Positions 2,911-32,493 of a DNA stretch of 64,000 bases are shown piece after piece. The DNA comes from Escherichia coli (GTDB lineage Bacteria; Pseudomonadota; Gammaproteobacteria; Enterobacterales; Enterobacteriaceae), in assembly GCF_030013205.1 (NCBI RefSeq), contig NZ_CP122648.1; one strand, 5' to 3'. Made by a program: the position numbers and the translations under genes. The stretch's first letter is position 1, and every line of letters begins with the position of its first letter. The notes under the pieces were generated by a model. The model worked only from the letters and a program-made list of their open reading frames with translations. It searched no databases and was not told the origin of the DNA.

Positions 2911-2974
2911 TTGTGAGCAGTAACTTAAAAATAACAATCTAATATCAACTTGTTAAAAAACAAGGAAGGCTAAT

Positions 2975-4276: not shown

Positions 4277-4285
4277 TGACCAATC

Positions 4286-4311
4286 GCGGGGCTTCAGGCC
4301 CCGCTTTCTTT
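4286..4311 (+). terminator. rho-independent terminator after dcuA
   Basis: hairpin gcggggc-ttcag-gccccgc followed by T-rich tract. Confidence 0.55.
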
Positions 4312-4390
4312 CCCGCCGACTAACATCCTTCCCCCGTCCGTTGTATAGTGACCTCTCTCTTGCGGTTCCATCTGTTCTTGCGAGGTGTTT

Positions 4391-4729: not shown

Positions 4730-6402
4730 TCCTGCTACTTTGCAGCACTTCCGTTTTTGCCGGATTATTCGACGCGCCGGGACGTTCACAATTTGTCCCC
4801 GCGGATCAAGCCTTTGCTTTTGATTTTCAGCAAAACCAACATGACCTGAATCTGACCTGGCAGATCAAAGACGGTTACTACCTCTACCGTAAACAGATCC
4901 GCATTACGCCGGAACACGCGAAAATTGCCGACGTGCAGCTGCCGCAAGGCGTCTGGCATGAAGATGAGTTTTACGGCAAAAGCGAGATTTACCGCGATCG
5001 GCTGACGCTTCCCGTCACCATCAACCAGGCGAGTGCGGGAGCGACGTTAACTATCACCTACCAGGGCTGTGCTGATGCCGGTTTCTGTTATCCGCCAGAA
5101 ACCAAAACCGTTCCGTTAAGCGAAGTGGTCGCCAACAACGCAGCGTCACAGCCTGTGTCTGTTCCGCAGCAAGAGCAGCCCACCGCGCAATTGCCCTTTT
5201 CCGCGCTCTGGGCGTTGTTGATCGGTATTGGTATCGCCTTTACGCCATGCGTGCTGCCAATGTACCCACTGATTTCTGGTATCGTGCTGGGCGGTAAACA
5301 GCGGCTCTCCACTGCCAGAGCATTGTTGCTGACCTTTATTTATGTGCAGGGGATGGCGCTGACTTACACGGCACTGGGTCTGGTGGTTGCCGCCGCAGGG
5401 TTACAGTTCCAGGCGGCGCTACAGCACCCATACGTGCTCATTGGCCTCGCTATCGTCTTTACCTTGCTGGCGATGTCAATGTTTGGCTTGTTTACTCTGC
5501 AACTCCCCTCTTCGCTGCAAACACGTCTCACGCTGATGAGCAATCGCCAACAGGGCGGCTCACCTGGCGGTGTGTTTGTTATGGGGGCGATTGCCGGACT
5601 GATCTGTTCACCATGCACCACCGCACCGCTTAGCGCGATTCTGCTGTATATCGCCCAAAGCGGGAACATGTGGCTGGGGGGCGGCACGCTTTATCTCTAT
5701 GCGTTGGGCATGGGCCTGCCGCTGATGCTAATTACCGTCTTTGGTAACCGCTTGCTGCCGAAAAGCGGCCCGTGGATGGAACAAGTCAAAACCGCGTTTG
5801 GTTTTGTGATCCTCGCACTGCCGGTCTTCCTGCTGGAGCGAGTGATTGGTGATATATGGGGATTACGCTTGTGGTCGGCGCTTGGTGTCGCATTCTTTGG
5901 CTGGGCCTTTATCACCAGCCTACAGGCCAAACGCGGCTGGATGCGCGTGGTGCAAATAATCCTGCTGGCAGCGGCATTGGTTAGCGTGCGCCCACTTCAG
6001 GATTGGGCATTTGGTGCGACGCATACCGCGCAAACTCAGACGCATCTCAACTTTACACAAATCAAAACGGTAGATGAGTTAAATCAGGCGCTCGTTGAAG
6101 CCAAAGGCAAACCAGTGATGTTAGATCTCTATGCCGACTGGTGCGTCGCCTGTAAAGAGTTTGAGAAATACACCTTCAGCGACCCGCAGGTGCAAAAAGC
6201 GTTAGCAGACACGGTATTACTTCAGGCCAACGTCACTGCCAACGACGCACAAGATGTGGCGCTGTTAAAGCATCTTAATGTCCTTGGCCTACCGACAATT
6301 CTCTTTTTTGACGGACAAGGCCAGGAGCATCCACAAGCACGCGTCACGGGCTTTATGGATGCTGAAACCTTCAGCGCACATTTGCGCGATCGCCAACCGT
6401 GA
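4705..6402 (+). CDS. dsbD: thiol:disulfide interchange protein DsbD
   Basis: 565 aa from ATG 4705 ([13 protein letters not shown]...); CxxC thioredoxin-like C-terminal domain (WCVACK). Confidence 0.95.
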
Positions 6403-6438
6403 ACGACACTTGCAGTGGGAAAGACGGAGGAAAATAGC

Positions 6439-7014
6439 GTGCAACGTGAAGATGTACTGGGAGAAGCCCTGAAATTATTAGAATTACAAGGGATTGCCAA
6501 CACCACGCTGGAGATGGTTGCTGAACGTGTGGATTATCCACTGGACGAGCTACGCCGCTTCTGGCCAGACAAAGAGGCAATCCTCTACGATGCGCTGCGT
6601 TATCTTAGCCAACAGATAGATGTCTGGCGTCGTCAGCTGATGCTGGACGAAACGCAAACCGCCGAACAAAAGTTGCTGGCACGTTATCAGGCGTTATCGG
6701 AGTGCGTTAAAAACAACCGCTATCCGGGCTGTCTGTTTATCGCTGCCTGTACGTTTTATCCCGATCCTGGCCACCCTATTCATCAACTGGCCGATCAGCA
6801 AAAAAGCGCGGCCTACGATTTCACCCACGAACTGTTAACCACACTGGAAGTTGACGATCCGGCGATGGTAGCAAAGCAGATGGAACTGGTGCTGGAAGGC
6901 TGTTTAAGCCGAATGCTGGTGAATCGTAGCCAGGCGGATGTCGACACCGCACATCGGCTGGCGGAAGATATCCTGCGCTTCGCCCGCTGCCGCCAGGGTG
7001 GTGCTTTGACCTGA
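6439..7014 (+). CDS. yjdC: TetR-family transcriptional regulator YjdC
   Basis: 191 aa from GTG 6439 with SD ggagg; N-terminal HTH. Confidence 0.85.
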
Positions 7015-7120
7015 CAGAAACACAGAAAAGAAGCGATTTGCCGCAATCTTAAGCAGTTGAATCGCTTTTACTGAAATTAGGTTGACGAGATGTGCAGATT
7101 ACGGTTTAATGCGCCCCGTT

Positions 7121-7196
7121 GCCCGGATAGCTCAGTCGGTAGAGCAGGGGATTGAAAATCCCCGTGTCCTTGGTTCGATTCCGAGTCCGGGCACCA
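7121..7196 (+). tRNA. pheU: tRNA-Phe (anticodon GAA)
   Basis: 76-nt cloverleaf sequence GCCCGGATAGCTCAGTCGGTAGAGCAGGGGATTGAAAATCCCC...CCA; anticodon loop TTGAAAA. Confidence 0.95.
7174..7196 (+). repeat. attL core (3' end of pheU), duplicated at 38277-38298
   Basis: 23 nt ttcgattccgagtccgggcacca; 22 of these recur (one G fewer) at 38277. Confidence 0.75.
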
Positions 7197-7208
7197 AATT
7201 CATATCAA

Positions 7209-7236
7209 CGGACCTCCACGGAGGTCCGTTTTTCGT
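7209..7236 (+). terminator. terminator hairpin downstream of pheU
   Basis: ggacctcc-acg-gaggtcc followed by T5. Confidence 0.6.
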
Positions 7237-7393
7237 TTCAGAACACCATGATTTAAGTGTTCTTCCTCCAAATCAATTCTACCGAACTCAACCAAATTCT
7301 CCCCACATCAACCTCATTGTGTGGGTATAATTGCGGGTATACCCCAGTTCGACAGAATTTATACCCTCTTTAACGCATTCAGAAGGCTGAACT

Positions 7394-8656
7394 ATGGCAC
7401 TGACTGACGCAAAAATCCGGGCTGCAAAGCCCACTGACAAGGCTTATAAACTCACTGACGGGGCCGGCATGTTCCTGCTGGTTCATCCTAATGGTTCCCG
7501 TTACTGGCGTCTCCGCTATCGTATTCTGGGTAAGGAGAAGACTCTGGCACTTGGTGTGTATCCAGAAGTTTCTCTCTCCGAAGCTCGTACAAAACGGGAT
7601 GAGGCCCGAAAACTGATTTCAGAGGGGATTGACCCTTGCGAACAGAAAAGAGCTAAAAAAGTTGTCCCTGATTTACAGCTCTCTTTTGAACATATTGCAC
7701 GACGCTGGCATGCCAGTAATAAACAATGGGCACAATCACACAGCGATAAAGTACTCAAAAGCCTCGAGACACACGTTTTCCCCTTTATCGGCAACCGGGA
7801 TATCACAACACTCAGTACCCCGGACCTGCTTATCCCTGTTCGTGCTGCAGAAGCTAAACAAATTTATGAAATCGCCAGTCGTCTGCAGCAAAGAATATCT
7901 GCTGTAATGCGTTATGCCGTACAGTCTGGCATCATCAGATATAACCCGGCTCTGGATATGGCTGGTGCATTGACCACGGTAAAACGCCAGCATCGCCCTG
8001 CACTGGATCTTTCACGCCTGCCTGAACTTCTGTCGCGTATTGACGGTTATAAAGGCCAGCCTGTCACCCGACTGGCAGTTATGCTGAATTTACTGGTTTT
8101 TATTCGTTCCAGTGAACTCAGATACGCCCGCTGGTCTGAAATTGATATTGACAATGCCATGTGGACTATTCCAGCCGAACGCGAACCTCTGCCTGGCGTA
8201 AAATTCTCACACCGGGGCTCCAAGATGCGAACACCACATCTTGTGCCACTCAGCAAACAGGCTGTAGCCATACTGGCAGAACTACAGACATGGGCTGGTG
8301 AAAATGGTCTGATCTTTACGGGAGCACATGACCCGCATAAACCAATCAGTGAAAATACTGTAAATAAAGCCCTGAGGGTGATGGGGTATGACACAACCCA
8401 GGATGTCTGTGGCCATGGATTCCGTGCGATGGCATGTAGTGCGCTGATCGAATCAGGTTTGTGGTCCCGCGATGCTGTTGAACGTCAGATGAGCCATCAG
8501 GAACGTAACGGTGTACGCGCTGCGTATATCCATAAAGCCGAACATCTGGAAGAACGCCGGCTGATGCTACAGTGGTGGGCAGATTTTCTGAATGCGAACA
8601 GAGAGAAATGTATCAGTCCGTTTGATTATGCAAAGATCAACAATCCATTAAAATAG
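7394..8656 (+). CDS. int: P4-type tyrosine integrase
   Basis: 420 aa directly downstream of tRNA-Phe; N-terminal MALTDAKIRAAKP... and C-terminal HGFRAMA...RAAY tyrosine-recombinase signature. Confidence 0.9.
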   Translation: MALTDAKIRAAKPTDKAYKLTDGAGMFLLVHPNGSRYWRLRYRILGKEKTLALGVYPEVSLSEARTKRDEARKLISEGIDPCEQKRAKKVVPDLQLSFEHIARRWHASNKQWAQSHSDKVLKSLETHVFPFIGNRDITTLSTPDLLIPVRAAEAKQIYEIASRLQQRISAVMRYAVQSGIIRYNPALDMAGALTTVKRQHRPALDLSRLPELLSRIDGYKGQPVTRLAVMLNLLVFIRSSELRYARWSEIDIDNAMWTIPAEREPLPGVKFSHRGSKMRTPHLVPLSKQAVAILAELQTWAGENGLIFTGAHDPHKPISENTVNKALRVMGYDTTQDVCGHGFRAMACSALIESGLWSRDAVERQMSHQERNGVRAAYIHKAEHLEERRLMLQWWADFLNANREKCISPFDYAKINNPLK

Positions 8657-8819: not shown

Positions 8820-9005
8820 ATGCTGCAGGTTCCGACAGCGGCGGCAAATATGCAGCACATATTGTGCTCACTGATCGGCACCTGCCGTCTGAACAATGCG
8901 GAGTCAGAAAAATTGCTGCATTACGTCACAGATCATATGCAGGACTGGTCGGCAAACCGGGTACGCGATCTGTTGCCCTGGAAAGTTGATCTGACCTCTC
9001 AGTAA
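8820..9005 (+). pseudogene. IS66-family transposase C-terminal fragment
   Basis: 61-aa ORF ...LIGTCRLN...LLPWKVDL matches the C-terminus of the larger IS66-like fragment at 9730-10251. Confidence 0.5.
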
Positions 9006-9069
9006 ATATCAATACGGTTCTGGCGAGCCGCTTACAATCGAACTGGGATACAGGGAGATAAAACAGACG

Positions 9070-9429
9070 ATGCAACTGAGCAGGCTGACGCTGAGAAGTA
9101 AAAAGCCGGAGCTTGTGGAGCAAGAGCTGTGGGGTGTCTTACTGGCTTATAATCTGGTGAGATATCAGATGATTAAAATGGCGGAACATCTGAAAGGTTA
9201 CTGGCCGAATCAACTGAGTTTCTCAGAATCATGCGGAATGGTGATGAGAATGCTGATGACATTGCAGGGCGCTTCACCGGGACATATACCGGAGCTGATG
9301 CGCGATCTTGCAAGTATGGGACAACTTGTGAAATTACCGACAATAAGGGAAAGGGCCTTCCCGAGAGTGGTAAAGGAGAGGCCCTGGAAATACCCCACAG
9401 CCCCGAAAAAGAGCCAGTCAGTTGCTTAA
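9070..9429 (+). pseudogene. DDE transposase C-terminal fragment (IS4-like)
   Basis: 119-aa truncated ORF resembling a DDE transposase C-terminal region; no N-terminal catalytic part. Confidence 0.4.
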
Positions 9430-9753
9430 CTGACTGGCATTAGGCCGCCGGGGGCGTTTTTTTACCACCGGGACTTCGGACATAACGGTGTTTTCAGTAA
9501 GTACGACAGGTACTGTGGAGGCACTCCCGTAAAGACGGGCATCAAGTTCCCGCTCCGACATACCTGCGGGCAGAGGCCATGAAAGGCCAGCTTTTCGGAA
9601 GCGCACGAACATACCACAAACTGTTGATTTTGGTACGCCCAGGCGACGTCCGGCCACAATCCGTGGTAAATGTTCTTCAAAGTGAAGACGTAAAGCTTCA
9701 GTGATCCAGGTCCGGTATTCCATACGATAGTGTCCATTAAAAATGATGGACAT
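9418..9753 (-). pseudogene. transposase N-terminal HTH fragment (family uncertain)
   Basis: 111-aa ORF with HTH-like segment (RRLGVPKSTV), embedded among IS debris. Confidence 0.3.
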
Positions 9754-10251
9754 TATTTTTGTGGAGCCGGAGGAAACACACCAGACTGTTTAAATGAGCC
9801 GGTTACCGAAATACGCGGGTTGCCGGTGTCTGAACGCCTGGCGGTCAGGCAAATGCAGAGTAAACCGCTACTGACTTCCCTGTATAAGCTGATGCAGGAG
9901 AAAGAACACACATTATCGAAAAAATGCCGTCTGAGAGATGCGTTCCGGTATATCCGGAAGCACTGGGTTGCGTTGTGCAACTTCTGTGATGATGGTCTGG
10001 CGGAGGCGGATAATAATGCCGCGGAAAGAGCGCTTCGTGCAGTCTGTCTCGGAAAGAAAAACTTTATGTTCTTCGGCAGCGATCACGGCGGCGAGCGAGG
10101 AGCACTGTTGTACGGGCTGATCGGCACCTGCCGACTGAACGGTATCGATCCGGAAGCGTATCTGCGCCATATCCTGAGCGTACTGCCGGAATGGCCTTCC
10201 AACCGAGTTGACGAACTCCTGCCATGGAACGTAGTACTCACCAATAAATAA
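9730..10251 (+). pseudogene. IS66-family transposase (TnpC) C-terminal fragment
   Basis: 173-aa ORF ending ...GIDPEAYLRHILSVLPEWPSNRVDELLPWN; gtaagcg-type end motif about 40 bp downstream. Confidence 0.6.
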
Positions 10252-10385: not shown

Positions 10386-11714
10386 ATGAGCCACAGGGAA
10401 TTGTTCAGCGAATTTCTTGAAAATTTGAATCTTGACCTCAAACAGGCAAAAAAGATCAGCTATCACTATCGAAAAATAACCAAGTCATTAAATCTTGCGT
10501 TCAGAGGAACGAGTTCCCGGGTAGCAAACCGCTTGAAAGTGGGGTCAGTAGGCAGACATACCGCAATAAAAGGCATATCCGATCTGGATATGCTTTATAT
10601 TATGCCCCCCAATCAGTATGAATATTATAACCGTAAGGATAATGGTCAGTCTGCATTGCTTACAGATGTCAGAAACATTCTGGCGGAAGAATATCCTGAC
10701 CAGACTGTGAAAAAGGACAGACTGGTTGTTCAGATCATCTTTAAAAACTTTTATGTCGAGGTTCAACCTGTATTCAGACAGGATGATGACAGCTTTAAAT
10801 TCCCTGAAAGCTATAATGGAGGAGCATGGCGCATTACAAAACCTCTTCACGAAAAGGCGGCCATGACCGCATTTTCGCGAGATAAATCCAATAATCTGCG
10901 CAAGCTGTGTAAAATGATCAGAGCCTGGAAGAACCTGCATGGCGTCAATATGGGTGGCTTACTGATAGACACACTAGCGTATCGCTTTCTTTCATCAACA
11001 TCAGATTATGACAATACCGGAAATGGCAGCCTGGGAGCCCTCGCCAGAGACTTTTTTGAATATCTGTCAAATGAGGAGAGAAAGGAAAGGTATCTCGCGT
11101 TAGGCAGTAATCAGCATGTACGTGTTAAATCTCCCTGGTTTGGCCGGGCAGCGAAACACGCGTATGAATTATGTTGTGATGCCTTAGACGCTGAGGGGGC
11201 TGCCAGTGAAAATGACCGCTGGCGCAAAGTGTTCGGACGAGCCTTCCCCAGACGTAAAGTGGGTATTATGGAAGCCCGTCTTGGTCTGGAATCGCATGCG
11301 GCAGATGCTGTTCCCTGGACCGATACCGAAGAGTTTATAGAGGATAAATATCCGGTGGATATCAGGTACTCACTCAACCTTGACTGTACCGTAACCCAGG
11401 ATGGTTTCCCTCCCAGAAGCCTGAGGGAGATGCTTACCAGAAGATTCCGCCTCTCCGCTCGAAAATCTCTCCTTTTCCGGGCAGACTTGACAGAAATGGA
11501 GGCAGAGGAACCCTACACCGTTATGTGGAAGGTACTGAACGTGGGTGACGAAGCACGCAGAAGAAATATGATCCGGGGACAAATCGTTTCGGACGGCGGC
11601 TACTGTACGAAGAAAGAAACTACCGACTTCCGCGGAGATCACATGGTAGAATGCTATGTGATAAAAAATGAGGTTGTGGTTGCCCGGGCCCAGATTGAAG
11701 TTCCCATAAGCTGA
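10386..11714 (+). CDS. Pol-beta-fold nucleotidyltransferase with C-terminal extension (SMODS/CD-NTase-like plus AGS-C-like region)
   Basis: ATG with SD aaagga; GS-x10-SDLD nucleotidyltransferase signature (VGSVGRHTAIKGISDLD); about 150-aa C-terminal extension; AT-rich gene. Confidence 0.6.
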   Translation: MSHRELFSEFLENLNLDLKQAKKISYHYRKITKSLNLAFRGTSSRVANRLKVGSVGRHTAIKGISDLDMLYIMPPNQYEYYNRKDNGQSALLTDVRNILAEEYPDQTVKKDRLVVQIIFKNFYVEVQPVFRQDDDSFKFPESYNGGAWRITKPLHEKAAMTAFSRDKSNNLRKLCKMIRAWKNLHGVNMGGLLIDTLAYRFLSSTSDYDNTGNGSLGALARDFFEYLSNEERKERYLALGSNQHVRVKSPWFGRAAKHAYELCCDALDAEGAASENDRWRKVFGRAFPRRKVGIMEARLGLESHAADAVPWTDTEEFIEDKYPVDIRYSLNLDCTVTQDGFPPRSLREMLTRRFRLSARKSLLFRADLTEMEAEEPYTVMWKVLNVGDEARRRNMIRGQIVSDGGYCTKKETTDFRGDHMVECYVIKNEVVVARAQIEVPIS

Positions 11715-11721: not shown

Positions 11722-12297
11722 ATGACGCAATCAGAGATGCTGAAATTAATCGCCCGACATGGTTATAACGTTGGATTTGGCGCTAAGAAAAACTTTGCCA
11801 CCTATGATCTGATTTGTAAGGCATCCGGTTGGATTAGCTTTATTTCTCTTGCTGTCGGTGTGTTCGCCCTTTTTATTCCTGAGCTGGCCACAAACGTCAT
11901 TTCCGCGATATTAATTATATTTGGTGTTGCTACAATGTACATTCAGTTTTATGACTCGGAAAAGCAGAGTTATGAAAGTGCGGGGATTGAGCAGACCAAA
12001 ATTTTTAATGAACTTGAAGTCATCTACCGCAACGTAAAAAGCGATGCAAACTTTGACTATCAGCGTACACAACAATCCATCGACGCTATCATGTCCCGGT
12101 TTTACGGCACGGTCATCAGCAAACAGATCTTCGGAAGTAACTGGTACGCACATTATAAATTTTACTGTGAATTTGAAAAAGCATGGGTTGAAGAAGAGCT
12201 GAACCTGACACTGAAGGACAAAATCCCGCTTTCGCTCTGCTTTCTCGCCGGTCTGGCGATCATTTTTACTATAGCTGTCATCTGGAAAACGCCCTGA
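11722..12297 (+). CDS. small multi-TM membrane protein (SLATT-like predicted effector)
   Basis: 191 aa, starts 8 nt after the nucleotidyltransferase stop with SD gagg; two adjacent N-proximal hydrophobic helices and one C-terminal helix. Confidence 0.55.
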   Translation: MTQSEMLKLIARHGYNVGFGAKKNFATYDLICKASGWISFISLAVGVFALFIPELATNVISAILIIFGVATMYIQFYDSEKQSYESAGIEQTKIFNELEVIYRNVKSDANFDYQRTQQSIDAIMSRFYGTVISKQIFGSNWYAHYKFYCEFEKAWVEEELNLTLKDKIPLSLCFLAGLAIIFTIAVIWKTP

Positions 12298-12848: not shown

Positions 12849-13574
12849 TTATGATGTACATAATACCTTAAAATTATCAACTAGCTGAGCATTAACCTCC
12901 ATCTGACTAATCCCCCATAATGCGGCTAACTGTTTCTCTGCAATCCCACTATCCCATGGCATTAGTGGGTCATTACGAAACTTAGCAAATGGCCCATCTG
13001 TTTCTGTAAGAATGCGTGATTTGGGTATTTTCAAAACTAAGGCCTTACCCTTTATTGTATCGAGCATAGCAGGCCCCACTGAGAACCAGCATCCTAAATC
13101 AATTGCCCTTTCAAGCTGCTTAGGTGTTCCAGTGAACCAATGCAATATTGCCACCCCATCGATATTTTCAATCTCATCAAGCACCGCTGATGCACTTCCC
13201 CGACTATGGATAGTCATAATCTTGCCACCAGCCCGATTTACACTGTTGAGAATGTGTCGGAACACTTTCAATTGAATATCCCAATGTTCTTTAAATCCCT
13301 GTCCACCATCAAGCCCTATTTCCCCTACATACTTAGTTTCCGAAAGCAATGAATCAAACAGGTCTAACTCATGCGATCTTTGATGCGCGATTTGAGGATG
13401 TAGCCCAAGAGCAGTTCGGATTCGTTGACTTTCTTTAGCCAATAAAGAAGTACCATGCCATGCTTTAGGTGTTGTTGTCACCGACAGAATATAAGTCCCT
13501 CGACGTTTACTTTCTTCAGCCACGAGGTCTGGCCGAGGATATAAGTCTAGATGACAGTGCATATCGATGCTCAT
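12849..13574 (-). CDS. qatD: TatD-family metal-dependent DNase (QatD)
   Basis: 241 aa; N-terminal HxH metal motif (MSIDMHCHLDLYP); start ATG overlaps qatC stop (ATGA). Confidence 0.8.
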   Translation of the reverse strand: MSIDMHCHLDLYPRPDLVAEESKRRGTYILSVTTTPKAWHGTSLLAKESQRIRTALGLHPQIAHQRSHELDLFDSLLSETKYVGEIGLDGGQGFKEHWDIQLKVFRHILNSVNRAGGKIMTIHSRGSASAVLDEIENIDGVAILHWFTGTPKQLERAIDLGCWFSVGPAMLDTIKGKALVLKIPKSRILTETDGPFAKFRNDPLMPWDSGIAEKQLAALWGISQMEVNAQLVDNFKVLCTS

Positions 13575-14890
13575 ACTATGTTCTCACTCAGTAAATAGCT
13601 TTCAACCTCATCCAGGCCATCCTTAAATACTTGCTTGAAATTATCAAATTCTGCCGTAGGCAAAGGGCCACTTTTGGCAATCCATGTACCTATTTTCAAA
13701 GTCGATTTCTGCGTGATCGCAATCCTAAGGGCGATCAGGTCGTCCCTGCGATCTATTTCATTCATTACTTTAGCTAAGGACTGGAAAATATATTCAACAT
13801 CTCTACTAATTCCCCCTGCATGAAGTGATGCTCGTCGAATGATACACGGTATACATACCCCACATTGCTGCCCCATTCGTTTCCAATGACTGCAGGATAC
13901 TGTACTTTCCACAATTTTAGATAAGAGCTGCTTATTTGAACATTCGGAGATCATTTTTCCTTTTGTCTTAAACTGATATGGATTGATTATTTGACAAGAA
14001 ATACCGAGCGCATCAAAGATCTTTTGTATGCTCGTAATAAAATGTGGATGTGTTGTTCGTGTGCTCAGCGAACCTATCCGCCGTGGAGTAAGTGGTGCAT
14101 TTAATGAGATAAATCCATTTTCAGGTACGAACAAATCAATCTTTTCTTGTTGAGATATCTCTTGTACGGCACAAGCACCTACGGCCGCAAAGGCAAGAAA
14201 ATTGAGGCTACGAGTTCGCATCGTAATATCAGTCACGCCTTGATAAATGTGTGGGTCAGCATTAATCTCAAAGCGCGAAAATTGGCCACTTAATTTTTCA
14301 GCAATCTGATCTTGACGAGACTTATCCCCCTTATAAGCATGACTAACCAAAAGTGGAGCGCGCCCTGCAGCCAGAAGATCTATTGCACCAATAGCTGAAT
14401 CCAGACCTCCTGAAAATAGGCTGACACAGTCAAGCCCTTTTAGCTTAATCAGACGATGCCTTGAATGCTGGCTATAAGGCTCTGGCGGTGCATAACCATC
14501 GTCACAAAATTCGAAATCCCAGATGTCTCCACTAAGAAAATGCAAAGCACTCTCAAGTTCTTTCTTTAGACTAATCCATCTGGATGGTTCATGAAGGGGG
14601 AGTCGTAACGACAATTGGCGGGTCCAACCATCCTCGGAACTTTCACGCTGAACGAAAGTATCTGCTGCAGTTACTGCTAATGCAACACTCAGAAAATCCA
14701 TGACCTTAGCTGGAAGCTGTACTCCCAAACGTCTGATCCGATCAATCGCAGGATTCCCGATAACAGATATATCTCCGCGCCTCTGACCACTTAATCCATA
14801 TAGCTGAACAGGTAACACTTTCTCACTTGCTGGCGGCAAATGGTGATGTTTATGATGGAAAACTAATTGTGTCACTGGTATGCCTCCCAT
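13571..14890 (-). CDS. qatC: QueC-like PP-loop ATPase (QatC)
   Basis: 439 aa; PP-loop SGGLDS; C-terminal Cys cluster CSHW...CGVCIPC as in QueC. Confidence 0.8.
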   Translation of the reverse strand: MGGIPVTQLVFHHKHHHLPPASEKVLPVQLYGLSGQRRGDISVIGNPAIDRIRRLGVQLPAKVMDFLSVALAVTAADTFVQRESSEDGWTRQLSLRLPLHEPSRWISLKKELESALHFLSGDIWDFEFCDDGYAPPEPYSQHSRHRLIKLKGLDCVSLFSGGLDSAIGAIDLLAAGRAPLLVSHAYKGDKSRQDQIAEKLSGQFSRFEINADPHIYQGVTDITMRTRSLNFLAFAAVGACAVQEISQQEKIDLFVPENGFISLNAPLTPRRIGSLSTRTTHPHFITSIQKIFDALGISCQIINPYQFKTKGKMISECSNKQLLSKIVESTVSCSHWKRMGQQCGVCIPCIIRRASLHAGGISRDVEYIFQSLAKVMNEIDRRDDLIALRIAITQKSTLKIGTWIAKSGPLPTAEFDNFKQVFKDGLDEVESYLLSENIV

Positions 14891-15624
14891 TCTTGCCAGG
14901 CCTCAATAATGGCCTGACGTTCAATTTTTACCATTTGGTTTCGTGTGAACGATCTTATGTTACCGGCAAGTTTTGGTGCCATATGTTTATCAACAACAAC
15001 TTTAATCAATTCCCGGAGTTCAATTTCTGCATGAATTGCCTTTGAAGGTGTATCTGCTTTGTTCCATGCCCTATTAGAATCCATTACCATCTGAAGGAAA
15101 ATACTTTCCGCTAGATAACCAATCATTGTGTCAACAATCACACCATCAGTTATTTTTTGAGGATCGAAAATTTCTACGCCATCAAGAGCCTCCACTAAAG
15201 CATGGTTCATGGCCGCACAGATCTTTTCTGAGTCACCATCCTGTGATGTTAAAGCTTGAGCAATAGTTGATATTGCTATTTCGCATGGAAGGCCTGCCAA
15301 ACTGCCCAAATCGATGCTTGGTTCTCCGGGAGCCGAAGGCATTCCCACTAAAGCCCCAAATAATTCGGCCCCAGCTTGCGTGACACTCCCTAATCGCCGA
15401 GCAGCGTTACTGCTCCCTCCGGAGGCTTTTCGCGCGTAGTGCCCTATGGCTTTTCTGAAATCTGCTCGATTTCCATTTGATACCGCATTTCCCAACGATT
15501 CTCGAAATGGCGCAAACCTCCTTTCTTGCGGCGAGGGTAACGGTTGCTGTGGCTGATCATCAGCCCATGGTGGAACCAGCGGAGAGCCACCTCCTGGACC
15601 TTTACTTGATTGTGATGTTCCCAT
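14872..15624 (-). CDS. qatB: QatB (function unknown)
   Basis: 250 aa Gly/Pro-rich protein between the KAP ATPase and QueC-like genes; start overlaps qatA stop by 1 nt, 3' end overlaps qatC by 19 nt. Confidence 0.65.
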   Translation of the reverse strand: MGTSQSSKGPGGGSPLVPPWADDQPQQPLPSPQERRFAPFRESLGNAVSNGNRADFRKAIGHYARKASGGSSNAARRLGSVTQAGAELFGALVGMPSAPGEPSIDLGSLAGLPCEIAISTIAQALTSQDGDSEKICAAMNHALVEALDGVEIFDPQKITDGVIVDTMIGYLAESIFLQMVMDSNRAWNKADTPSKAIHAEIELRELIKVVVDKHMAPKLAGNIRSFTRNQMVKIERQAIIEAWQEWEAYQ

Positions 15625-17408
15625 TAAGCGTCCTTATTCCATTGTTCATCTTTTAATGCTGCAGTCATCCACGCTGGTCGTTTCATCCCCAACTGTAATT
15701 CCTGTAGATAACGAATTAATATGCTGGCTGCATCTGTTGAGTAGCGGGCCAACAGACATGCGCCGGAAAAGCCTCTGGGCTTACGATCCCAATCTGATAC
15801 CTGCCGTAACTGGTTAATTAAACCTTCCATTACAGGTATTTGCTCCTCACGAGGAAGTGCTTTCAAAAGGTTTTCTGCTGTAGGAGAACTAGTGTTTTTC
15901 AATTCAATTAGTGCATTTAGTACTTCCCGTCCAGATGGCGATAAACCAACCACATATGCACCTATTGGCATAGTTTCTCGGGACAGATATATGGCGGCCC
16001 TTAAGTCAATCCCACCAAGACGAGGTTCAAGTTGGGCCCATTGACTGATGAAAGATTTAGTCGTTGGACTATCAGTCCATGTCTTTGGTGCATCAGTAGG
16101 TATTTGACCGCCATTATCGTCAAGCTGTTTAAGTATCTGGGGAACACCTTGTTCAATATCCACGAGATGATATAAATCAGCGGTGCCATCCACTCCAACA
16201 CAGCGTTCAAAAATTACTAGCTTAGTAATAATTGCTTCATCCAAAGGCATTGCTCGTCGCTTCGCAATTTGAGATCGCATTTTCACAACATTCAACAAGC
16301 GTTTAACGATCCTGGGATTACCATGAATAATTGGAGAGTTGGCTAAAATGGGAGCAATACGGTCAGCACGCGCAAACGCCAGCGCGAGGTTGCTATCATC
16401 CGCTTCACCAGTCATTTTTAAGGCCTCCTGACGTGAGATTGGTTCATCTTTCCAGGATTGCTGTAACGCCTTCTCTAAGCCCTCACGGAGCATAGTTATT
16501 TTTTCGCCTTCTAAGCCATGTTCAATGGCATAAAGCATGAACAGATACGAACGGATCTCACGGACCCCAGCCTTAGGCACCCGAATAGGAACCTGGATTA
16601 GCTTATCCAGATAATCTATTTGATGGCGCTGTGATGCCCCTTTGAAGTAATCAGCCACAGAAGAGCGAATCATGTCCTCATCTGCTGCAATAATAAAGGC
16701 TGTATTAGTCAAGAAAAGGAATAGCCTGATAGCTTCAAGTGTATGGATAGCATTGGCAGGGAGACAGCGGTCTAGGTTATCTATTACCACAATGAGTGGC
16801 TTTCCAAGTTCTTCTAGAATTTCCCCATATTCCTTACGAAAGGCATCAATCTGCTGAGGGGGGCTTTTTTTTGTTTGTGGTTTAATCAAACCACAAGCAG
16901 TTTCTTTACCTTCTTTAGCTATATTGCCTAAAGCCTCATACTCTTCCTGACTCTGGATGCCATCGGTGATATTTCTTAATGCACCAATCCCCCTAGAAAG
17001 CAAACCGCCAGTAGGTAATCCTGCCATTAAAGCTGTACCCTCAGCTAGTAATCCCATAGCTCTAAAACCATCAACTCGACTAAGGAGTCTCTTAGTTTTT
17101 GATATAAGGGTAGAATTACCTTCAGCAGCTTTTGTCAATTCTGTAGCGATGACTTCAAGAAGTGCGGCACGGGCGTCGTCGTACCCCTGATAGAGCCAAG
17201 AGTCAAAATTGATAACAATCCAATCTTTGTCGTCTTGCTCAAGTTTTTGCTCTATCAGTTTTAACAGAGAGGATTTACCTGCCCCCCAGTTTCCAAAAAT
17301 TCCGATAGATACTGGTAACATATCTTTCGTGGTAAGTACATCCACGGCTAACTGAGATACTTCACCAAAATTTAGGTAGTCTTCTGATGACTCTTTGTCT
17401 GACCACAT
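15624..17408 (-). CDS. qatA: KAP-family P-loop NTPase (QatA)
   Basis: 594 aa; Walker A GNWGAGKSS near N-terminus. Confidence 0.8.
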   Translation of the reverse strand: MWSDKESSEDYLNFGEVSQLAVDVLTTKDMLPVSIGIFGNWGAGKSSLLKLIEQKLEQDDKDWIVINFDSWLYQGYDDARAALLEVIATELTKAAEGNSTLISKTKRLLSRVDGFRAMGLLAEGTALMAGLPTGGLLSRGIGALRNITDGIQSQEEYEALGNIAKEGKETACGLIKPQTKKSPPQQIDAFRKEYGEILEELGKPLIVVIDNLDRCLPANAIHTLEAIRLFLFLTNTAFIIAADEDMIRSSVADYFKGASQRHQIDYLDKLIQVPIRVPKAGVREIRSYLFMLYAIEHGLEGEKITMLREGLEKALQQSWKDEPISRQEALKMTGEADDSNLALAFARADRIAPILANSPIIHGNPRIVKRLLNVVKMRSQIAKRRAMPLDEAIITKLVIFERCVGVDGTADLYHLVDIEQGVPQILKQLDDNGGQIPTDAPKTWTDSPTTKSFISQWAQLEPRLGGIDLRAAIYLSRETMPIGAYVVGLSPSGREVLNALIELKNTSSPTAENLLKALPREEQIPVMEGLINQLRQVSDWDRKPRGFSGACLLARYSTDAASILIRYLQELQLGMKRPAWMTAALKDEQWNKDA

Positions 17409-17539: not shown

Positions 17540-18742
17540 CTATTTTTTAAAGAATGAAATAAGCTTTCTTATCCCAGTCCATATTTTCCTATCAGAATCC
17601 GAAGGGTTAAATTCGCTCTTGTCAAAATCAGCAACCTCAGCAACCTCAGCAACCTCAGCAACCTCAGCAACCTCAGCAACCTCAGCAACCTCAGCAACCT
17701 CAGCAACCTCAGCAACCTCAGCAACCTCAGCAACCTCAGCAACCTCAGCAACCTCAGCAAGGTTTATTCTATTTTGATGAGCTGTCAAATGTTCTTTGTT
17801 AATTTCATCTCTAATTAGCTGTTCTTTTTCTATGCTGTAGTTTTTGTCATTATAAGTCACATCAAAATCATCTAAGAAAACGATATAAATCAATTTAAAA
17901 AAACTAGTCTTAAATAAAAAACTATCGCACTCATCAGGAAAACCAAAAAAGAAAACATTAAGATATTTGGTTGCTTTGCGCTTGTCTTTTAGTCCATTAT
18001 AATACTTATTTGCTTCTGCTCTTTGTTTTTCATACTCACTACAGAAAAAACTCTTTTTACTTTCATCCCATTCTGAAGCATCAATTTCAAGTTTATATGC
18101 TTGTTTGGTACCTTTCTTTCTGGCTAAAAAAGTAAGGTAATATCTATTCGAATTTATCTCCAGCCGTATATTAGATTGAATTTTACCAAAATAAATTGCT
18201 GGCTTATTATATCTAATTCCTTCTTTATAGATGATTAGTTGAAAAGTATCTTTATAAGTTCTAACTCCATAAGGGGGAATTGATAATGGTTCATAGAGAT
18301 TATCTCCATTAATGTAGTAGTCTACTACCGGTTTGATGCTTGAAGATGACACAGGGTGTACTTTACCTCCCAAATCTTTTTCATCATCTCGCGTCTGTTT
18401 GATAATTCTTCTGCCAGAAGAGTCGTAATTTCTTTCAGACACATCAAGTTTCAGAAGAGATATAGCTAATGCCGGTGGTGAATTATGCTTTTTATTATTC
18501 TTTGAGTTACACTTATTTTTACTCTTAGGATCATGAATCTTACATCCCGGCCTATGAGTCTCTTTATATCGAAAGTATGATTGATTTAAATTTATTTCTT
18601 TGAAGCTACATGGAGTAGCGGGTATCCTACATTTGTCATACGGGCATTCAAAAGTGGTTGTTCGTATATAAAGATCATCCATTTCCCGAAGATCATGACC
18701 ATGAACAATTTCACCACTAACAGAATCTCTTGCTATTGTCAC
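17540..18742 (-). CDS. hypothetical protein with N-terminal Cys cluster and C-terminal (Ala-Glu-Val)n repeat
   Basis: 400 aa; GTG start preceded by perfect SD AAGGAG at 5-nt spacing; C33/C38/C45/C67 with flanking His; AT-rich; co-directional with qatA 131 bp downstream. Confidence 0.6.
   Translation of the reverse strand: MTIARDSVSGEIVHGHDLREMDDLYIRTTTFECPYDKCRIPATPCSFKEINLNQSYFRYKETHRPGCKIHDPKSKNKCNSKNNKKHNSPPALAISLLKLDVSERNYDSSGRRIIKQTRDDEKDLGGKVHPVSSSSIKPVVDYYINGDNLYEPLSIPPYGVRTYKDTFQLIIYKEGIRYNKPAIYFGKIQSNIRLEINSNRYYLTFLARKKGTKQAYKLEIDASEWDESKKSFFCSEYEKQRAEANKYYNGLKDKRKATKYLNVFFFGFPDECDSFLFKTSFFKLIYIVFLDDFDVTYNDKNYSIEKEQLIRDEINKEHLTAHQNRINLAEVAEVAEVAEVAEVAEVAEVAEVAEVAEVAEVAEVAEVAEVADFDKSEFNPSDSDRKIWTGIRKLISFFKK
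17628..17760. repeat. perfect 9-bp tandem repeat (gcaacctca), about 14.8 copies, in-frame within the 400-aa CDS
   Basis: Direct reading of sequence; encodes the AEV repeat on the minus strand. Confidence 0.97.
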
Positions 18743-18980
18743 ACAATCTCCTTTGATAAAAATTAATAGATTCTAATTTCATACCAAGGCTAATTTAAAT
18801 AAAGGCTATTTAAGAGAAAAACAAGTCAGCCTGACAGACATATCCCCTCCCATGGCAATATGCCGCTATTTCGCGTTTTTTTTCACGCCATAATGCGTTT
18901 CAAGGTAGCGAATATCTTCGATTGCCCATGGTGTGCGCATTCTTTTGGGTTTATTTTCCATTACCATGTTTTATCAGCCA

Positions 18981-19190
18981 TCATGGCAGCCTCTCCGGTT
19001 TGCCAGCGTGTTCCACCTGATAACGATTAATCAGCTGATTCAGTGCCATTTCAGCCTGTTTTTGCTGCTGTTCACTGCCATTCTGGTTACGGGCTTCATC
19101 ATAGCGACGTAACTGCTCTTCCGCCGGGATATGCCGGTTAAAAGCCTGCATGATGCCAAACACCTCTGTTTTCAGTTCACTGACCGTCAT
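18981..19190 (-). CDS. small hypothetical protein
   Basis: 69 aa from internal ATG with SD gggga (track ORF 84 aa); Gln/Glu-rich helical sequence. Confidence 0.4.
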   Translation of the reverse strand: MTVSELKTEVFGIMQAFNRHIPAEEQLRRYDEARNQNGSEQQQKQAEMALNQLINRYQVEHAGKPERLP

Positions 19191-19950
19191 GTATTTTCCC
19201 CGCTGTTCATCCAGACGGTTCAGGCGCTCAGCCATCCGCGGCCTGAAGAGATAAAGGCGATAATAAAACAGACATCAGTGTCAGTGACAGCAAGGACGGA
19301 CAGCGCCGGAATAAGCTTTGTTCCTCAGCCCTCACGTTCCTGCAACATAATTTTCCAGCCAAACGAAAAACCTTTTATTCATGCCATACCAATAATCGCC
19401 AGCCTCCTGGCGATGCCTCCCACCATGTTTTGCAGTGGTACGCTACCGCCCTTCCGGTATTTACCCGCATCAACCGGTACCAGAATGCTGAGTAACAAAC
19501 CAGCTCAGAACTGACTGAATTTTGATCATTATAGAATAATGATCTGAACTGCAGCAATATAACAGATTTATCGATCGATATAACGCAAATGAACAGATCT
19601 TTATTCTGTCATATATCGCAAAAACAGCACATTACAAAATTTATAACCATAATTAATGGAAAAGTGCAGAAAATTATTCCACTGAATGCTTTTAATACAG
19701 TTAGTTAGCTAAAAAAATAGCAATTTTTGATTTCAGTCATTGAAAATTGCAATGCGTGACGATTCAACAGCATTTAAGTGAGTTTCAGGATATGGGAAGG
19801 ACATGAAAGGAGGAGCGCAATAAAATATACAGGAAGAAGGGGAAAATGTTTCGTAAAAACAGAAAATTAACAGCGCACATCAGGAAACTCAGTCTCCTGA
19901 TTCAGTGCTACCACATGAAAATTTAGTTAACTGTTACCGTACTAAAATTT

Positions 19951-23818: not shown

Positions 23819-24031
23819 TCAGGTGACATATTTCCAGACGGAAGCCGGCACGCGATCATAAAGTTTGTTCATCGTCAGTTCTGCCAGCCGGTGATCGACC
23901 GCAGAGTTGAAAGCTTCCAGCTCCGCAGGGGTAAGTTTATAACGCGTGTGGGAAATCACTTTTTCCAGTGTCTCCCGGGATGAACAACGACGGAACTGAT
24001 ACAGCCAGTCTTCTTTGGTTTTAACTTCCAT
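23819..24031 (-). CDS. small hypothetical protein
   Basis: 70 aa, SD gagagg upstream. Confidence 0.4.
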   Translation of the reverse strand: MEVKTKEDWLYQFRRCSSRETLEKVISHTRYKLTPAELEAFNSAVDHRLAELTMNKLYDRVPASVWKYVT

Positions 24032-24733
24032 TAGCCTCTCATTACTTTATGCTGCAATTAACGTGATACTGTCAGCATGCCGCACCAGACCGGCATTCTG
24101 GTACCCTCCCCAAACTTATTACTCCCGTGCCACCACTTAACCGGTATCTCAGACTGACACTCACCAGGTCGGATACGTTTACCGCTCAAATACACTCTGT
24201 TCACGTGTGTTGCAGGTACGTTTTATATACGCAGGTTATACGCCAGCTATCAGAGATAGCCCTGTGGGTACAACGCAATCTGTTGTTACTGCGTTCTCAT
24301 ACCCACTGATCACACTCACAGTGTTTATTTCACATATATGAACTCATGTATTTGATCTCATGTGTTTGCTCTCTCTTATATATTTAATACCAATCAGACA
24401 GTCTTATCCCATCGGTGATACCTGTCGCCTGCCCGCCGGACACGGGCTGCCCCACCGTAACCGCCCCGTAAATAACTCTGCAATTATCAGAACGACGGCT
24501 CTTCCCCTCATCCTCCCGAAAAGCATCCCTTCTCTGTCGTGCGTACGCGCGGGAAGCATCGTTTCGCGGTAGCCACCGGGTATCTCAGCATCATGCCCCC
24601 TGTTTATCTCTCGGCAGGAATATTCCCCTACTCATTTTTTACGTTTCTCCCCGGTTGTTATGCCGGTGAAGGTGGTGCGTTGTTTTTATCACCAATGCCG
24701 GTTGAGATTAACAACATCCGAAGGAACATTTTC

Positions 24734-29432: not shown

Positions 29433-29646
29433 TATAGTGGTTAATGACCTGCGAAAAGGCAGTTGATTCTCTTCATCATGCAGAACGGAATTGCACACAA
29501 CGGACTGATGCTTCTCTGGCGGATGAGAGAGGGGAAGCATTTATGTCCGAGAAAAACCACTTTATCTGACCATGCTGTTTTGTACCTGCCGGTATCCACA
29601 TTTGTGGGTACCGGCTTTTTTATTCACCCTCTGTAAGGAAAAGCTG

Positions 29647-32493
29647 ATGAAACGACATCTGAACACCAGCTACAGGCTGGTATGGAATCACATTACGGGC
29701 ACCCTGGTGGTGGCTTCCGAACTGGCCCGCTCACGGGGGAAACGTACTGGCGTGGCGCTGGCGCTGTCTCTTGCCACCGCCACTTCAGTCCCGGCCCTGG
29801 CTGCTGACAGTGTTGTACAGGCAGGGGAAATCGTGAACGGCGGGACACTGGTAAATCATGACAACCAGATTGTCTTCGGTACGACCAACGGAATGACCAT
29901 CAGTACCGGGCTGGAGTATGGGCCGGATAACGAGGCCAATACCGGCGGGCAATGGGTACAGGATGGCGGCACAGCCAGTAATACCACCATCAGCAACGGC
30001 GGGCTCCAGTTTGTAGGTGCCGGGGGAAAGGCTACAGACACAATAATCAATGAAGGAGGCGGACAAAGTCTGAAGGGACTGGCACTGAACACCACGCTGA
30101 ATGGTGGCGAGCAGTGGATGCATGAAGGTGCGATAGCCACAGGAACCGTCATTAATGATAAGGGCTGGCAGGTCGTCAAACCCGGCGCAGTGGCAACAGA
30201 CACCGTTGTGAATACCGGCGCAGAAGGAGGACCGGATGCAGAAAATGGTGATACCGGGCAGTTTGTTCGCGGAAATGCCGTACGTACCACTATCAATAAA
30301 AATGGTCGTCAGATTGTGGTAGCCACCGGAGTGGCAAACACCACGGTGGTTTATGCCGGCGGCGACCAGACGGTACATGGCCACGCACTGGATACCACGC
30401 TGAATGGCGGTAACCAGTATGTGCACAACGGCGGTACAACGTCTGACACTGTTGTGAACAGTGACGGCTGGCAGATTATCAAGGAAGGTGGTCTGGCGGA
30501 TTTCACCACCGTTAACCAGAAAGGCAAACTGCAGGTGAACGCCGGTGGTACAGCCACGAATGTCACCCTGAAGCAGGGCGGCGCACTGGTCACCAGTACT
30601 GCTGCAACGGTTCTTGGCAGCAACCGTCTGGGGAATTTCACGGTGGAAAACGGTAAGGCTGACGGCGTTGTTCTGGAGTCCGGCGGTCGCCTGGATGTAC
30701 TGGAGGGCCATTCAGCGCAGAATACCCTGGTGGATGACGGCGGTACCCTGGCAGTGTCTGCCGGTGGTAAGGCAACAGATGTCACCATGACATCCGGTGG
30801 TGCCCTGATTGCAGACAGTGGTGCCACTGTTGAGGGGACCAATGCCAGCGGTAAGTTCAGTATTGATGGCATATCCGGTCAGGCCAGCGGCCTGCTGCTG
30901 GAAAATGGCGGCAGCTTTACGGTTAATGCCGGGGGACAGGCCGGTAACACCACTGTCGGATATCGTGGAACACTGACGCTGGCTGCCGGGGGAAGTCTGA
31001 GTGGCAGAACACAGCTCAGTAAAGGTGCCAGCATGGTACTGAATGGCGATGTGGTCAGTACCGGCGATATTGTTAACGCAGGGGAGATTCGCTTTGATAA
31101 TCAGACAACACCGGATGCCGCGCTGAGCCGTGCTGTTGCAAAAAGTAACTCCCCGGTAACGTTCCATAAACTGACCACCAGTAACCTCACCGGCCAGGGC
31201 GGCACCATCAATATGCGTGTCAGCCTTGATGGCAGTAATGCCTCAGACCAGCTGGTAATTAATGGTGGTCAGGCAACCGGCAAAACCTGGCTTGCGTTCA
31301 CAAATGTCGGAAACAGCAATCTCGGGGTGGCAACCTCCGGACAGGGTATCAGGGTTGTGGATGCACAGAATGGCGCCACCACAGAAGAAGGTGCGTTTGC
31401 CCTGAGTCGCCCGCTTCAGGCCGGCGCCTTTAACTACACCCTGAACCGTGACAGCGATGAAGACTGGTACCTGCGCAGTGAAAATACTTATCGTGCTGAA
31501 GTCCCCCTGTATGCCTCCATGCTGACACAGGCAATGGACTATGACCGGATTCTGGCAGGCTCCCGCAGCCATCAGACCGGTGTAAGCGGTGAAAATAACA
31601 GCGTCCGTCTCAGCATTCAGGGCGGTCATCTCGGGCACGATAACAACGGTGGTATTGCCCGTGGGGCCACGCCGGAAAGCAGCGGCAGCTATGGCTTCGT
31701 CCGTCTGGAGGGTGACCTGCTCAGAACAGAGGTTGCCGGTATGTCTCTGACGACAGGGGTGTATGGTGCTGCAGGCCATTCTTCCGTTGAAGTTAAGGAT
31801 GATGACGGCTCCCGCGCCGGCACGGTCCGGGATGATGCCGGCAGCCTGGGCGGATACCTGAATCTGGTACACACATCCTCCGGCCTGTGGGCTGACATTG
31901 TGGCACAGGGAACCCGCCACAGCATGAAAGCGTCATCGGACAATAACGACTTCCGCGCCCGGGGCTGGGGCTGGCTGGGCTCACTGGAAACCGGTCTGCC
32001 CTTCAGTATCACTGACAATCTGATGCTGGAGCCACAACTGCAGTACACCTGGCAGGGACTTTCCCTGGATGACGGCCAGGATAACGCCGGTTATGTGAAG
32101 TTCGGGCATGGCAGTGCACAACATGTGCGTGCCGGCTTCCGTCTGGGCAGCCACAACGATATGACCTTTGGTGAAGGCACCTCATCCCGTGACACCCTGC
32201 GCGACAGTGCAAAACACAGTGTGCGTGAACTGCCGGTGAACTGGTGGGTACAGCCTTCTGTTATCCGCACCTTCAGTTCCCGGGGTGACATGAGCATGGG
32301 GACAGCCGCTGCCGGCAGTAACATGACGTTATCACCGTCACAGAATGGCACGTCACTGGACCTGCAGGCCGGACTGGAAGCCCGTGTCCGGGAAAATATC
32401 ACCCTGGGGGTACAGGCCGGTTATGCCCACAGCGTCAGCGGCAGCAGTGCTGAAGGTTATAACGGTCAGGCCACGCTGAATGTGACTTTCTGA
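29647..32493 (+). CDS. flu: antigen 43 self-associating autotransporter
   Basis: 949 aa from ATG 29647 (MKRHLNTSYRLVWNH...); long Gly/Thr-rich beta-helix passenger and C-terminal beta-barrel. Confidence 0.9.
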   Translation: MKRHLNTSYRLVWNHITGTLVVASELARSRGKRTGVALALSLATATSVPALAADSVVQAGEIVNGGTLVNHDNQIVFGTTNGMTISTGLEYGPDNEANTGGQWVQDGGTASNTTISNGGLQFVGAGGKATDTIINEGGGQSLKGLALNTTLNGGEQWMHEGAIATGTVINDKGWQVVKPGAVATDTVVNTGAEGGPDAENGDTGQFVRGNAVRTTINKNGRQIVVATGVANTTVVYAGGDQTVHGHALDTTLNGGNQYVHNGGTTSDTVVNSDGWQIIKEGGLADFTTVNQKGKLQVNAGGTATNVTLKQGGALVTSTAATVLGSNRLGNFTVENGKADGVVLESGGRLDVLEGHSAQNTLVDDGGTLAVSAGGKATDVTMTSGGALIADSGATVEGTNASGKFSIDGISGQASGLLLENGGSFTVNAGGQAGNTTVGYRGTLTLAAGGSLSGRTQLSKGASMVLNGDVVSTGDIVNAGEIRFDNQTTPDAALSRAVAKSNSPVTFHKLTTSNLTGQGGTINMRVSLDGSNASDQLVINGGQATGKTWLAFTNVGNSNLGVATSGQGIRVVDAQNGATTEEGAFALSRPLQAGAFNYTLNRDSDEDWYLRSENTYRAEVPLYASMLTQAMDYDRILAGSRSHQTGVSGENNSVRLSIQGGHLGHDNNGGIARGATPESSGSYGFVRLEGDLLRTEVAGMSLTTGVYGAAGHSSVEVKDDDGSRAGTVRDDAGSLGGYLNLVHTSSGLWADIVAQGTRHSMKASSDNNDFRARGWGWLGSLETGLPFSITDNLMLEPQLQYTWQGLSLDDGQDNAGYVKFGHGSAQHVRAGFRLGSHNDMTFGEGTSSRDTLRDSAKHSVRELPVNWWVQPSVIRTFSSRGDMSMGTAAAGSNMTLSPSQNGTSLDLQAGLEARVRENITLGVQAGYAHSVSGSSAEGYNGQATLNVTF

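Follow-up and report, generated by a model that had tools for sequence, protein, structure and literature searches.

Why does a gene of an Escherichia coli genomic island carry a long run of perfectly identical 9-bp units within its coding sequence, and what does a change in the number of these units do to the protein? The question arises from a stretch of 64,000 nucleotides (NCBI RefSeq assembly GCF_030013205.1, contig NZ_CP122648.1; hereafter the window), in which an array at positions 17628..17760 lies inside an open reading frame (ORF) of 400 amino acids (aa) on the minus strand (17540..18742, stop codon at 17540-17542). The ORF begins with a GTG codon preceded by AAGGAG; the RefSeq gene call is identical to it and carries the name 'hypothetical protein' (WP_000150684.1). 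As documented below, the tract is a coding variable-number tandem repeat (VNTR) of the kind used in multiple-locus VNTR analysis (MLVA): identical units stand head to tail, and related strains differ by whole units. We further consider it probable that this in-frame VNTR is hypermutable and constitutes an acidic spacer between an Avs8B-like region and a helix at the tail of the protein.

Copy number of the array among E. coli genomes

Tandem Repeats Finder described the array as 14.8 copies of a 9-bp unit with 100% matches and 0 indels. Its score of 266 makes it by far the strongest repeat of the 64-kb window, the runner-up scoring 50. On the coding (minus) strand, the raw sequence likewise contains 14 full units of GCTGAGGTT. 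Each is read GCT GAG GTT, specifying Ala-Glu-Val, and (AEV)14 followed by one further Ala makes up residues 329-371 of the protein. The original prediction had given the unit as gcaacctca, which is its form on the plus, non-coding strand; its description of a perfect array, in frame and encoding AEV, was borne out.

The locus is carried by 277 of 5,426 complete E. coli genomes (~5%); strains with it in the tRNA-Phe island include CFT073, APEC O1, S88 and pig enterotoxigenic E. coli (ETEC). Copy-number alleles were derived from the length of the matched span relative to the 1,701 bp of the window, in the 96 listed genomes that covered the whole locus. In 87 of them, the difference in span was divisible by 9 bp without remainder. 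This set comprised 43 distinct alleles ranging from about 7 to 64 units (median 33), with the window allele, at 14 units, near the lower end. Variation was extensive even where the flanks carry no SNP relative to the window: 13 pig ETEC strains with such 100% flank identity had 11 alleles (14, 21, 22, 24, 25, 27, 31, 39, 40, 50 and 59 units). Arrays of 7, 14, 24 and 59 units were fetched and each proved to be perfect, the flanks being alike. Thus, the comparison across related strains for which the original prediction had called revealed the length variability it anticipated, as well as changes in protein length without a frameshift; the perfect arrays of widely different size fit its suggestion of ongoing homogenisation or turnover.

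Clonal sets (DS566/-1/-2; 32F4/33F4/33E; ETEC4070/4071) had a single allele each, which indicates that the tract behaves as an MLVA-grade marker and is not scrambled every few generations. Strain ETEC1748 was identical to the window at the repeat locus, copy number included. For the ~5% of E. coli that have the tRNA-Phe island, the array offers a high-resolution typing marker. A search of the searchable literature with all rotations of the unit, on both strands, found no paper naming the E. coli 9-bp unit or locus.

The repeat-bearing protein and its relatives

The 400-aa protein had no family match in Pfam or NCBIfam. A sequence search of the PDB gave nothing meaningful, a search of phage genomes gave no match, and PHROGs matched the low-complexity repeat only. 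Homologs 50-82% identical were found in Klebsiella, Citrobacter, Serratia, Xenorhabdus, Providencia, Pectobacterium, Yersinia and Enterobacter, and homologs ~30% identical in Aliivibrio and Vibrio. PADLOC returned a partial match to PD-Lambda-4_B, restricted to 80 residues (209-288; E 4e-6). A family profile was built from 14 aligned homologs; searches with it delimited a family of 233 representative clusters and retrieved full-length PD-Lambda-4_B proteins over profile positions 1-285 (E 1e-24 to 1e-14). Since the ~300-aa proteins matching the profile are full-length PD-Lambda-4_B (E 1e-27 to 1e-92), residues 1-~300 belong to the Avs8B superfamily. By profile comparison, then, this conserved globular region (residues 1-300; 17843..18742, minus strand) is homologous to PD-lambda-4_B/Avs8B at the superfamily level. 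Its core, best modelled over residues ~134-300, has a weak OB-fold-like similarity. The AlphaFold2 (AF2) model of the protein has a confident core at residues ~160-290, with a mean predicted local distance difference test score (pLDDT) of 60.7 overall; its neighbours in the AlphaFold database are all uncharacterised or misleadingly named by automatic annotation. Near the N-terminus, the homolog alignment contains a C-x4-C ... H-x3-C motif (residues 33-70; 18533..18646, minus strand), a putative zinc-binding knuckle or ribbon. Residues C33, C38, H63 and C67 are invariant in 14 of 14 aligned homologs, the 30%-identical Aliivibrio protein included, which suggests a CCHC zinc site.

Avs8B is encoded by the second gene of the PD-lambda-4/Avs8 system; it is dispensable for defence against lambda and has no known function (PMC12236752). 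Besides the shared N-terminal ~300 aa, the repeat gene resembles the Avs8B gene in standing beside a defence gene for a P-loop NTPase (Vassallo 2022; PMC12236752). The two differ in several respects. Avs8B consists of ~300 aa and lacks both the linker and the tail present in the 400-aa window protein, whose direct match to the PD-Lambda-4_B hidden Markov model is the partial one given above. Instead of the STAND/Mrr protein Avs8A, the repeat gene has the KAP NTPase QatA as its partner and lies upstream of it, whereas Avs8B lies directly downstream of Avs8A. Other homologs of the repeat family stand alone or are located on plasmids.

Homologs of 360-553 aa are built of three parts, namely the ~300-aa conserved region, a low-complexity linker of ~30-220 residues that is often acidic, and a C-terminal tail. 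A net-positive tail, mostly amphipathic by eye, ends 48 of the 51 long homologs (examples are RRLWRWLFKR, SKILNFFRK and KVRKWLRRVSG). The AEV repeat accounts for most of the linker in the window protein, whose residues 301-384 include 24 acidic and 5 basic residues; a change in copy number would thus alter the length of an acidic spacer while keeping frame and tail. The protein ends with RKIWTGIRKLISFFKK (residues 385-400; 17543..17590, minus strand), a basic amphipathic helix identified from the AF2 model, which places a helix at 383-399, and from composition. This segment has a hydrophobic moment of 0.77 (z 2.5 relative to shuffles) and a net charge of +3. C-terminal amphipathic helices of the MinD/FtsA type target proteins to the membrane. 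By analogy, the tail of the window protein is probably a peripheral anchor to the inner membrane.

Variable-length spacers leading to a membrane contact are familiar from the C-terminal linker of FtsZ, the helices of MinD and FtsA, and the (Glu-Pro)n/(Lys-Pro)n rod of TonB; Pro-Glu (PE) repeats form rigid extended spacers. The repeat protein resembles these in combining a globular domain, a low-complexity or acidic spacer of loose length, and a short terminal element binding membrane or partner. It differs in that none of their linkers is a hypermutable perfect repeat at the DNA level or varies between strains to this extent, and there is no homology. In a separate observation, a metagenome protein from ENA (P0014, 243 aa) was seen to carry an unrelated N-terminus of ~100 aa fused to the C-terminal module of the family. 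It joins the family from about residue 225 of the window protein and, besides a (PE)5 repeat, has a hydrophobic tail; such a chimera suggests that the C-terminal module is separable.

A paralog 58% identical to the window protein was found in 314 complete genomes, O157:H7 in almost every case. In strain EC4115 its linker contains, at the equivalent position, a perfect array of 40.7 copies of GCCAGA encoding (PE)40. Spans of the paralog vary by multiples of 6, with 23 alleles of 10-63 units in 54 genomes. The published primers for locus TR2 match exactly on both sides of the GCCAGA array. TR2, with the unit TGGCTC, was the most diverse locus of its study (PMC2246123) and is the same as Vhec1 and O157-10 (PMC3768571); the loci of Noller 2003, Lindstedt 2003 and Keys 2005 are taken here as tabulated in those two papers. 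The (PE)n tract of the O157:H7 paralog is, therefore, MLVA locus TR2/Vhec1/O157-10. O157-10 is the most unstable VNTR of O157, with 1.3-4.8e-4 mutations per generation and both gains and losses of whole units (PMC3777172).

The two loci have much in common. Both are perfect in-frame coding VNTRs at the same linker position of paralogous proteins, the O157 array also lying between the same conserved domain and the same tail ending in WGRLKKIITFFKK; the range of copy number is similar, and changes are by whole units. They differ in the unit, which is 6 bp (GCCAGA, Pro-Glu) in O157-10 and 9 bp (Ala-Glu-Val) in the window, and in site, since O157-10 lies in an element that encodes two tyrosine recombinases and has a BamE-like gene in convergent orientation, rather than in the tRNA-Phe/Qat island. 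The measured mutation rate is that of O157-10, not that of the E. coli 9-bp locus. The module that houses the PE-type paralog (EC4115 locus, 715-7905) consists of two tyrosine recombinase genes, a gene for a 543-aa DNA-binding protein, two small ORFs and then the repeat gene; it ends with a convergent gene for a lipoprotein of the BamE-domain/SEN1984 family. This arrangement is common to O157:H7, Enterobacter and Pantoea, and a BamE-like lipoprotein neighbour was also found in Xenorhabdus.

A third array was found in a more distant relative. The ~30%-identical homolog encoded by Vibrio pVA1-type plasmids of shrimp acute hepatopancreatic necrosis disease (AHPND) contains, at the same linker site, a perfect array of GCTGAAGTT, again encoding AEV, and so does the Aliivibrio fischeri homolog. 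Vibrio arrays of 2, 5, 15 and 28 units were verified to be perfect, and 16 of 18 pVA1-type plasmids differ by multiples of 9; overall, copy number on these plasmids is about 3-29. The likeness to the window locus extends from the 9-bp AEV unit (GCTGAAGTT as against GCTGAGGTT in E. coli) to its location at the corresponding point of a homologous protein whose tail is of the same type, and to perfect arrays whose copy number varies between near-identical plasmids. Differences lie in the protein, ~30% identical, and in the setting, the gene being plasmid-borne beside traF and a lytic transglycosylase gene. Genotyping of AHPND plasmids of the pVA1 type makes use of a '9 bp small sequence repeat' (Han et al. 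2015, cited through PMC6117253), which is probably the GCTGAAGTT array. In pVPE61a (209-3628), the homolog lies just downstream of traF, the lytic transglycosylase gene and two hypothetical genes, its start overlapping the preceding ORF. Many pVA1-type plasmids have a second megablast match.

Shorter PE repeats, of 2-10 units, occur in homologs from Xenorhabdus, Yersinia, Pectobacterium, Enterobacter, Pantoea and Erwinia, and a contig scan, which returned 5 loci, showed repeats of the PE and AEV types in E. albertii, Enterobacter, Pantoea and Erwinia. The hypervariable linker is thus a trait of the family, recurring at the same position as (PE)n in O157:H7 and as (AEV)n in Vibrio pVA1-type plasmids. 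In-frame coding VNTRs are already known, and the paralogous O157-10 is a textbook MLVA marker; that the shared linker of one Avs8B-like family underlies the E. coli locus, O157-10 and the pVA1 array is a link we did not find in the accessible literature. It unites three hypervariable repeats in one architecture of Avs8B-like domain, variable acidic spacer and terminal amphipathic helix.

The arrays also leave their mark on databases. Many proteins of the family are deposited as 'partial' and end exactly at the repeat, and scaffolds have N-gaps there, indicating that short-read assemblies break at the arrays. The repeat is consequently a predictable assembly breakpoint for short reads as well as a source of misannotation. 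The PE/AEV repeat is evidently the reason why entries A8AM90, A0A743YS84, A0A0H3PS76 and A0A376ME16 bear misleading automatic names, either 'Procyclic acidic repetitive protein (PARP)' or 'Ribonucleases G and E'.

Mechanism of length change and rival explanations

How would the array change length, and with what effect? Out-of-register realignment of the perfect 9-bp units, by replication slippage or unequal sister-strand exchange, would add or remove whole units, and Ala-Glu-Val triplets would then be gained or lost without a frameshift. The repeat would form an acidic spacer outside the folded domain, connecting the N-terminal ~300-aa Avs8B-like region to the C-terminal basic amphipathic helix, and the helix most likely serves as its tether to the inner membrane, on the cytoplasmic face. 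The length of the tether would follow from copy number, about 7-64 units amounting to 21-192 repeat residues. Selection would mainly keep the frame and the tail, spacer length being loosely constrained. We infer slippage, backed by direct measurements at the paralogous O157-10, and the spacer role of the repeat. Hairpin-driven instability was rejected because the single strands of the repeat do not fold: they have no hairpin potential, with minimum free energies of 0 and -2.1 kcal/mol that are weaker than those of shuffles. Simple out-of-register misalignment is thus the likely course. With this model, the orphan Avs8B family gains a testable hypothesis, that of membrane tethering with variable reach.

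Several observations weigh against this model. The spans of 9 of the 96 genomes are not multiples of 9 bp, and at both off-multiple loci inspected there is an indel within the array and the gene is annotated as frameshifted or split. These are a 5-bp deletion in CUVET20-PYO2 and a 1-bp deletion in strain 300709, both 'complete' genomes; such sub-unit deletions could reflect either genuine null alleles or errors of long-read sequencing. Clonal sets share alleles, so that the mutation rate at the E. coli 9-bp locus is not extreme. Repeat and tail are modelled at a pLDDT of ~30-45, which leaves the spacer conformation at low confidence, and the probable membrane anchoring is argued from sequence pattern and analogy only. 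Finally, Avs8B being dispensable and without a known function, homology to it yields no mechanism.

The tract might instead be an adaptive contingency locus in which mutability itself is selected: populations would keep producing tether-length variants of a membrane-anchored protein of defence or mobile elements, and the length that does best would depend on the phage, plasmid or counter-defence protein encountered. We hold this to be unlikely, though some indirect hints favour it. Perfect hypermutable arrays occupy the same linker site in three lineages (AEV in E. coli, PE in O157, AEV on Vibrio plasmids), and 8 of the 9 bases of the AEV 9-mer are identical between proteins that are only 30% identical. 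Both unit lengths are multiples of 3 with the C-terminal helix preserved, and in its defence island the gene has Qat and CBASS (cyclic-oligonucleotide-based antiphage signalling system) genes for neighbours. However, once A-E-V is given, matching codons for Ala and Val are expected by chance about once in 16, and high turnover sustains long perfect arrays without selection. The distribution of alleles is broad and flat: from about 7 to 64 units, no length is obviously preferred. No allele has a known phenotype. Furthermore, most linkers of the family are non-repetitive low-complexity segments of 30-220 aa, an indication that linker length and sequence are both loosely constrained. In a wider form, which we consider rather improbable, the Avs8B-like CCHC family would have repeatedly evolved a hypermutable tether, or kept one since the Vibrio-Escherichia split, with mutability selected and lengths of ~20-190 residues sampled. 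If so, sampling of tether lengths would tune or diversify the meeting with phage or plasmid DNA, or with an NTPase partner, at the membrane, and the O157-10 and pVA1 small sequence repeat markers would be read-outs of functional length diversification rather than neutral microsatellites. The locus also raises the question of whether hypervariability in tether length is selected in genes of mobile elements and defence islands.

At the other extreme, the gene could be a functionless hitch-hiker, a decaying or inert cargo ORF in which the repeat is a neutral microsatellite. The lack of a Pfam or NCBIfam match, the dispensability of Avs8B for defence, the presence of the locus in only ~5% of complete E. 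coli genomes and the frameshifts of some alleles all fit such a view, but we judge it improbable. The ORF is intact in most genomes, and the invariant Cys/His residues and the core are conserved from Vibrio to Escherichia. The three-part architecture is maintained with the frame open to the C-terminal helix in 48 of the 51 long homologs, and the lengths of both repeat units are divisible by 3. Beyond the repeat, the tail is suggested to be under purifying selection.

In the contingency loci of Haemophilus and Neisseria (Moxon), the units measure 1-7 bp and are no multiples of 3, or the tracts lie within promoters, and switching ON and OFF is reversible. The E. coli tract is like them a hypermutable simple-sequence tract in a gene of an accessory, conflict-related locus, but it changes protein length only. 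Under classical phase variation, slippage would switch either the gene itself or the Qat operon downstream of it ON and OFF; this reading could draw on the nine off-multiple genomes, on the two alleles with 1-bp or 5-bp deletions and frameshifted or split annotation, and on the absence of an intrinsic terminator between the repeat gene and qatA. Yet, with a unit of 9 bp (and one of 6 bp in the paralog), whole-unit slippage keeps the frame. In-frame alleles make up 87 of the 96, and the off-frame cases are sub-unit indels, not products of slippage, which might stem from errors in long reads. The gene downstream is convergent in O157:H7, Xenorhabdus, Enterobacter and Pantoea, leaving no operon to regulate. 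The unit length being a multiple of 3, classical ON/OFF phase variation was rejected as very improbable. Hence the term 'contingency tract' of the original prediction is not established: a 9-bp unit alters length and cannot turn the gene ON or OFF.

An assembly or sequencing artefact, suggested by the frequent mis-assembly of such repeats and by short-read assemblies that visibly break at the arrays, has a negligible probability, the array being present and perfect in >240 complete genomes from many laboratories, with allele size constant within clonal sets and different between lineages.

The tRNA-Phe island and its genes

The repeat gene belongs to a ~31-kb genomic island (7121-38900) inserted at tRNA-Phe (7121-7196), between dsbD/dicD and cadC. 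It lies directly upstream of qatA on the same strand, with a gap of 131 bp, the tract itself being ~220 bp upstream of the qatA start; no intrinsic terminator was predicted between the two genes. The downstream genes (12849-17408, minus strand) form a complete QatDCBA anti-phage system, with E=0 for QatA, 9e-131 for QatB, 2e-140 for QatC and 6e-97 for QatD. The possibility that the repeat gene encodes a fifth Qat component was discarded: no Qat model matched it, the four downstream genes account for QatA-D, and homologs occur without Qat. One of these, in E. coli O166:H15, lies beside a restriction-type methyltransferase/helicase pair; another, in Yersinia, lies between MobA and TraD at a locus resembling a plasmid or an integrative and conjugative element. 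Xenorhabdus, O157:H7 and Vibrio plasmids also have homologs without Qat. A role of the repeat as a promoter spacer for qatA was likewise considered and rejected. The tract lies within coding sequence, and homologous tracts exist without a downstream operon, which makes cis-regulation of qatA unlikely.

Upstream of the repeat gene, a putative sigma-70-like promoter (TTTAAA-18-TAGAAT, 18799-18770) and the AAGGAG Shine-Dalgarno motif span 18750..18799 on the minus strand. Both are consensus matches only, and the number of promoter-like sites that a promoter scan found around the gene was not above that in shuffled sequence.

From the tRNA-Phe end, the island has an integrase gene (7394-8656), IS4/IS66 insertion sequence fragments (~8825-10251) and, on the plus strand, a type I CBASS consisting of an oligonucleotide cyclase (10386-11714; PADLOC Cyclase, E 9e-177) and a 2TM/SLATT effector (11722-12297; E 2e-82). 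Beyond the Qat and repeat genes lie a pseudogene of the type VI secretion system gene VasL (18981-19238), hha (23819-24031), Ag43 (29645-32491) and a YeeU/CbtA toxin-antitoxin pair in a CP4-like module (35708-36543); antirestriction and RadC genes are also present in the island.

A distant homolog of the repeat protein, P0049 (438 aa), was found on a JGI metagenome contig (179-7317) directly downstream of a GASH/DO-GTPase1/2/GAP1-N1 conflict system. It would be the third member of the family beside an NTPase-centred defence system, after Avs8A (STAND) and QatA (KAP); with three cases, the association is suggestive only. Two further tandem repeats of the island, at 24335-24373 and 36312-36339, are imperfect, with 14-bp units in 2.8 and 2.1 copies and 84-87% matches.

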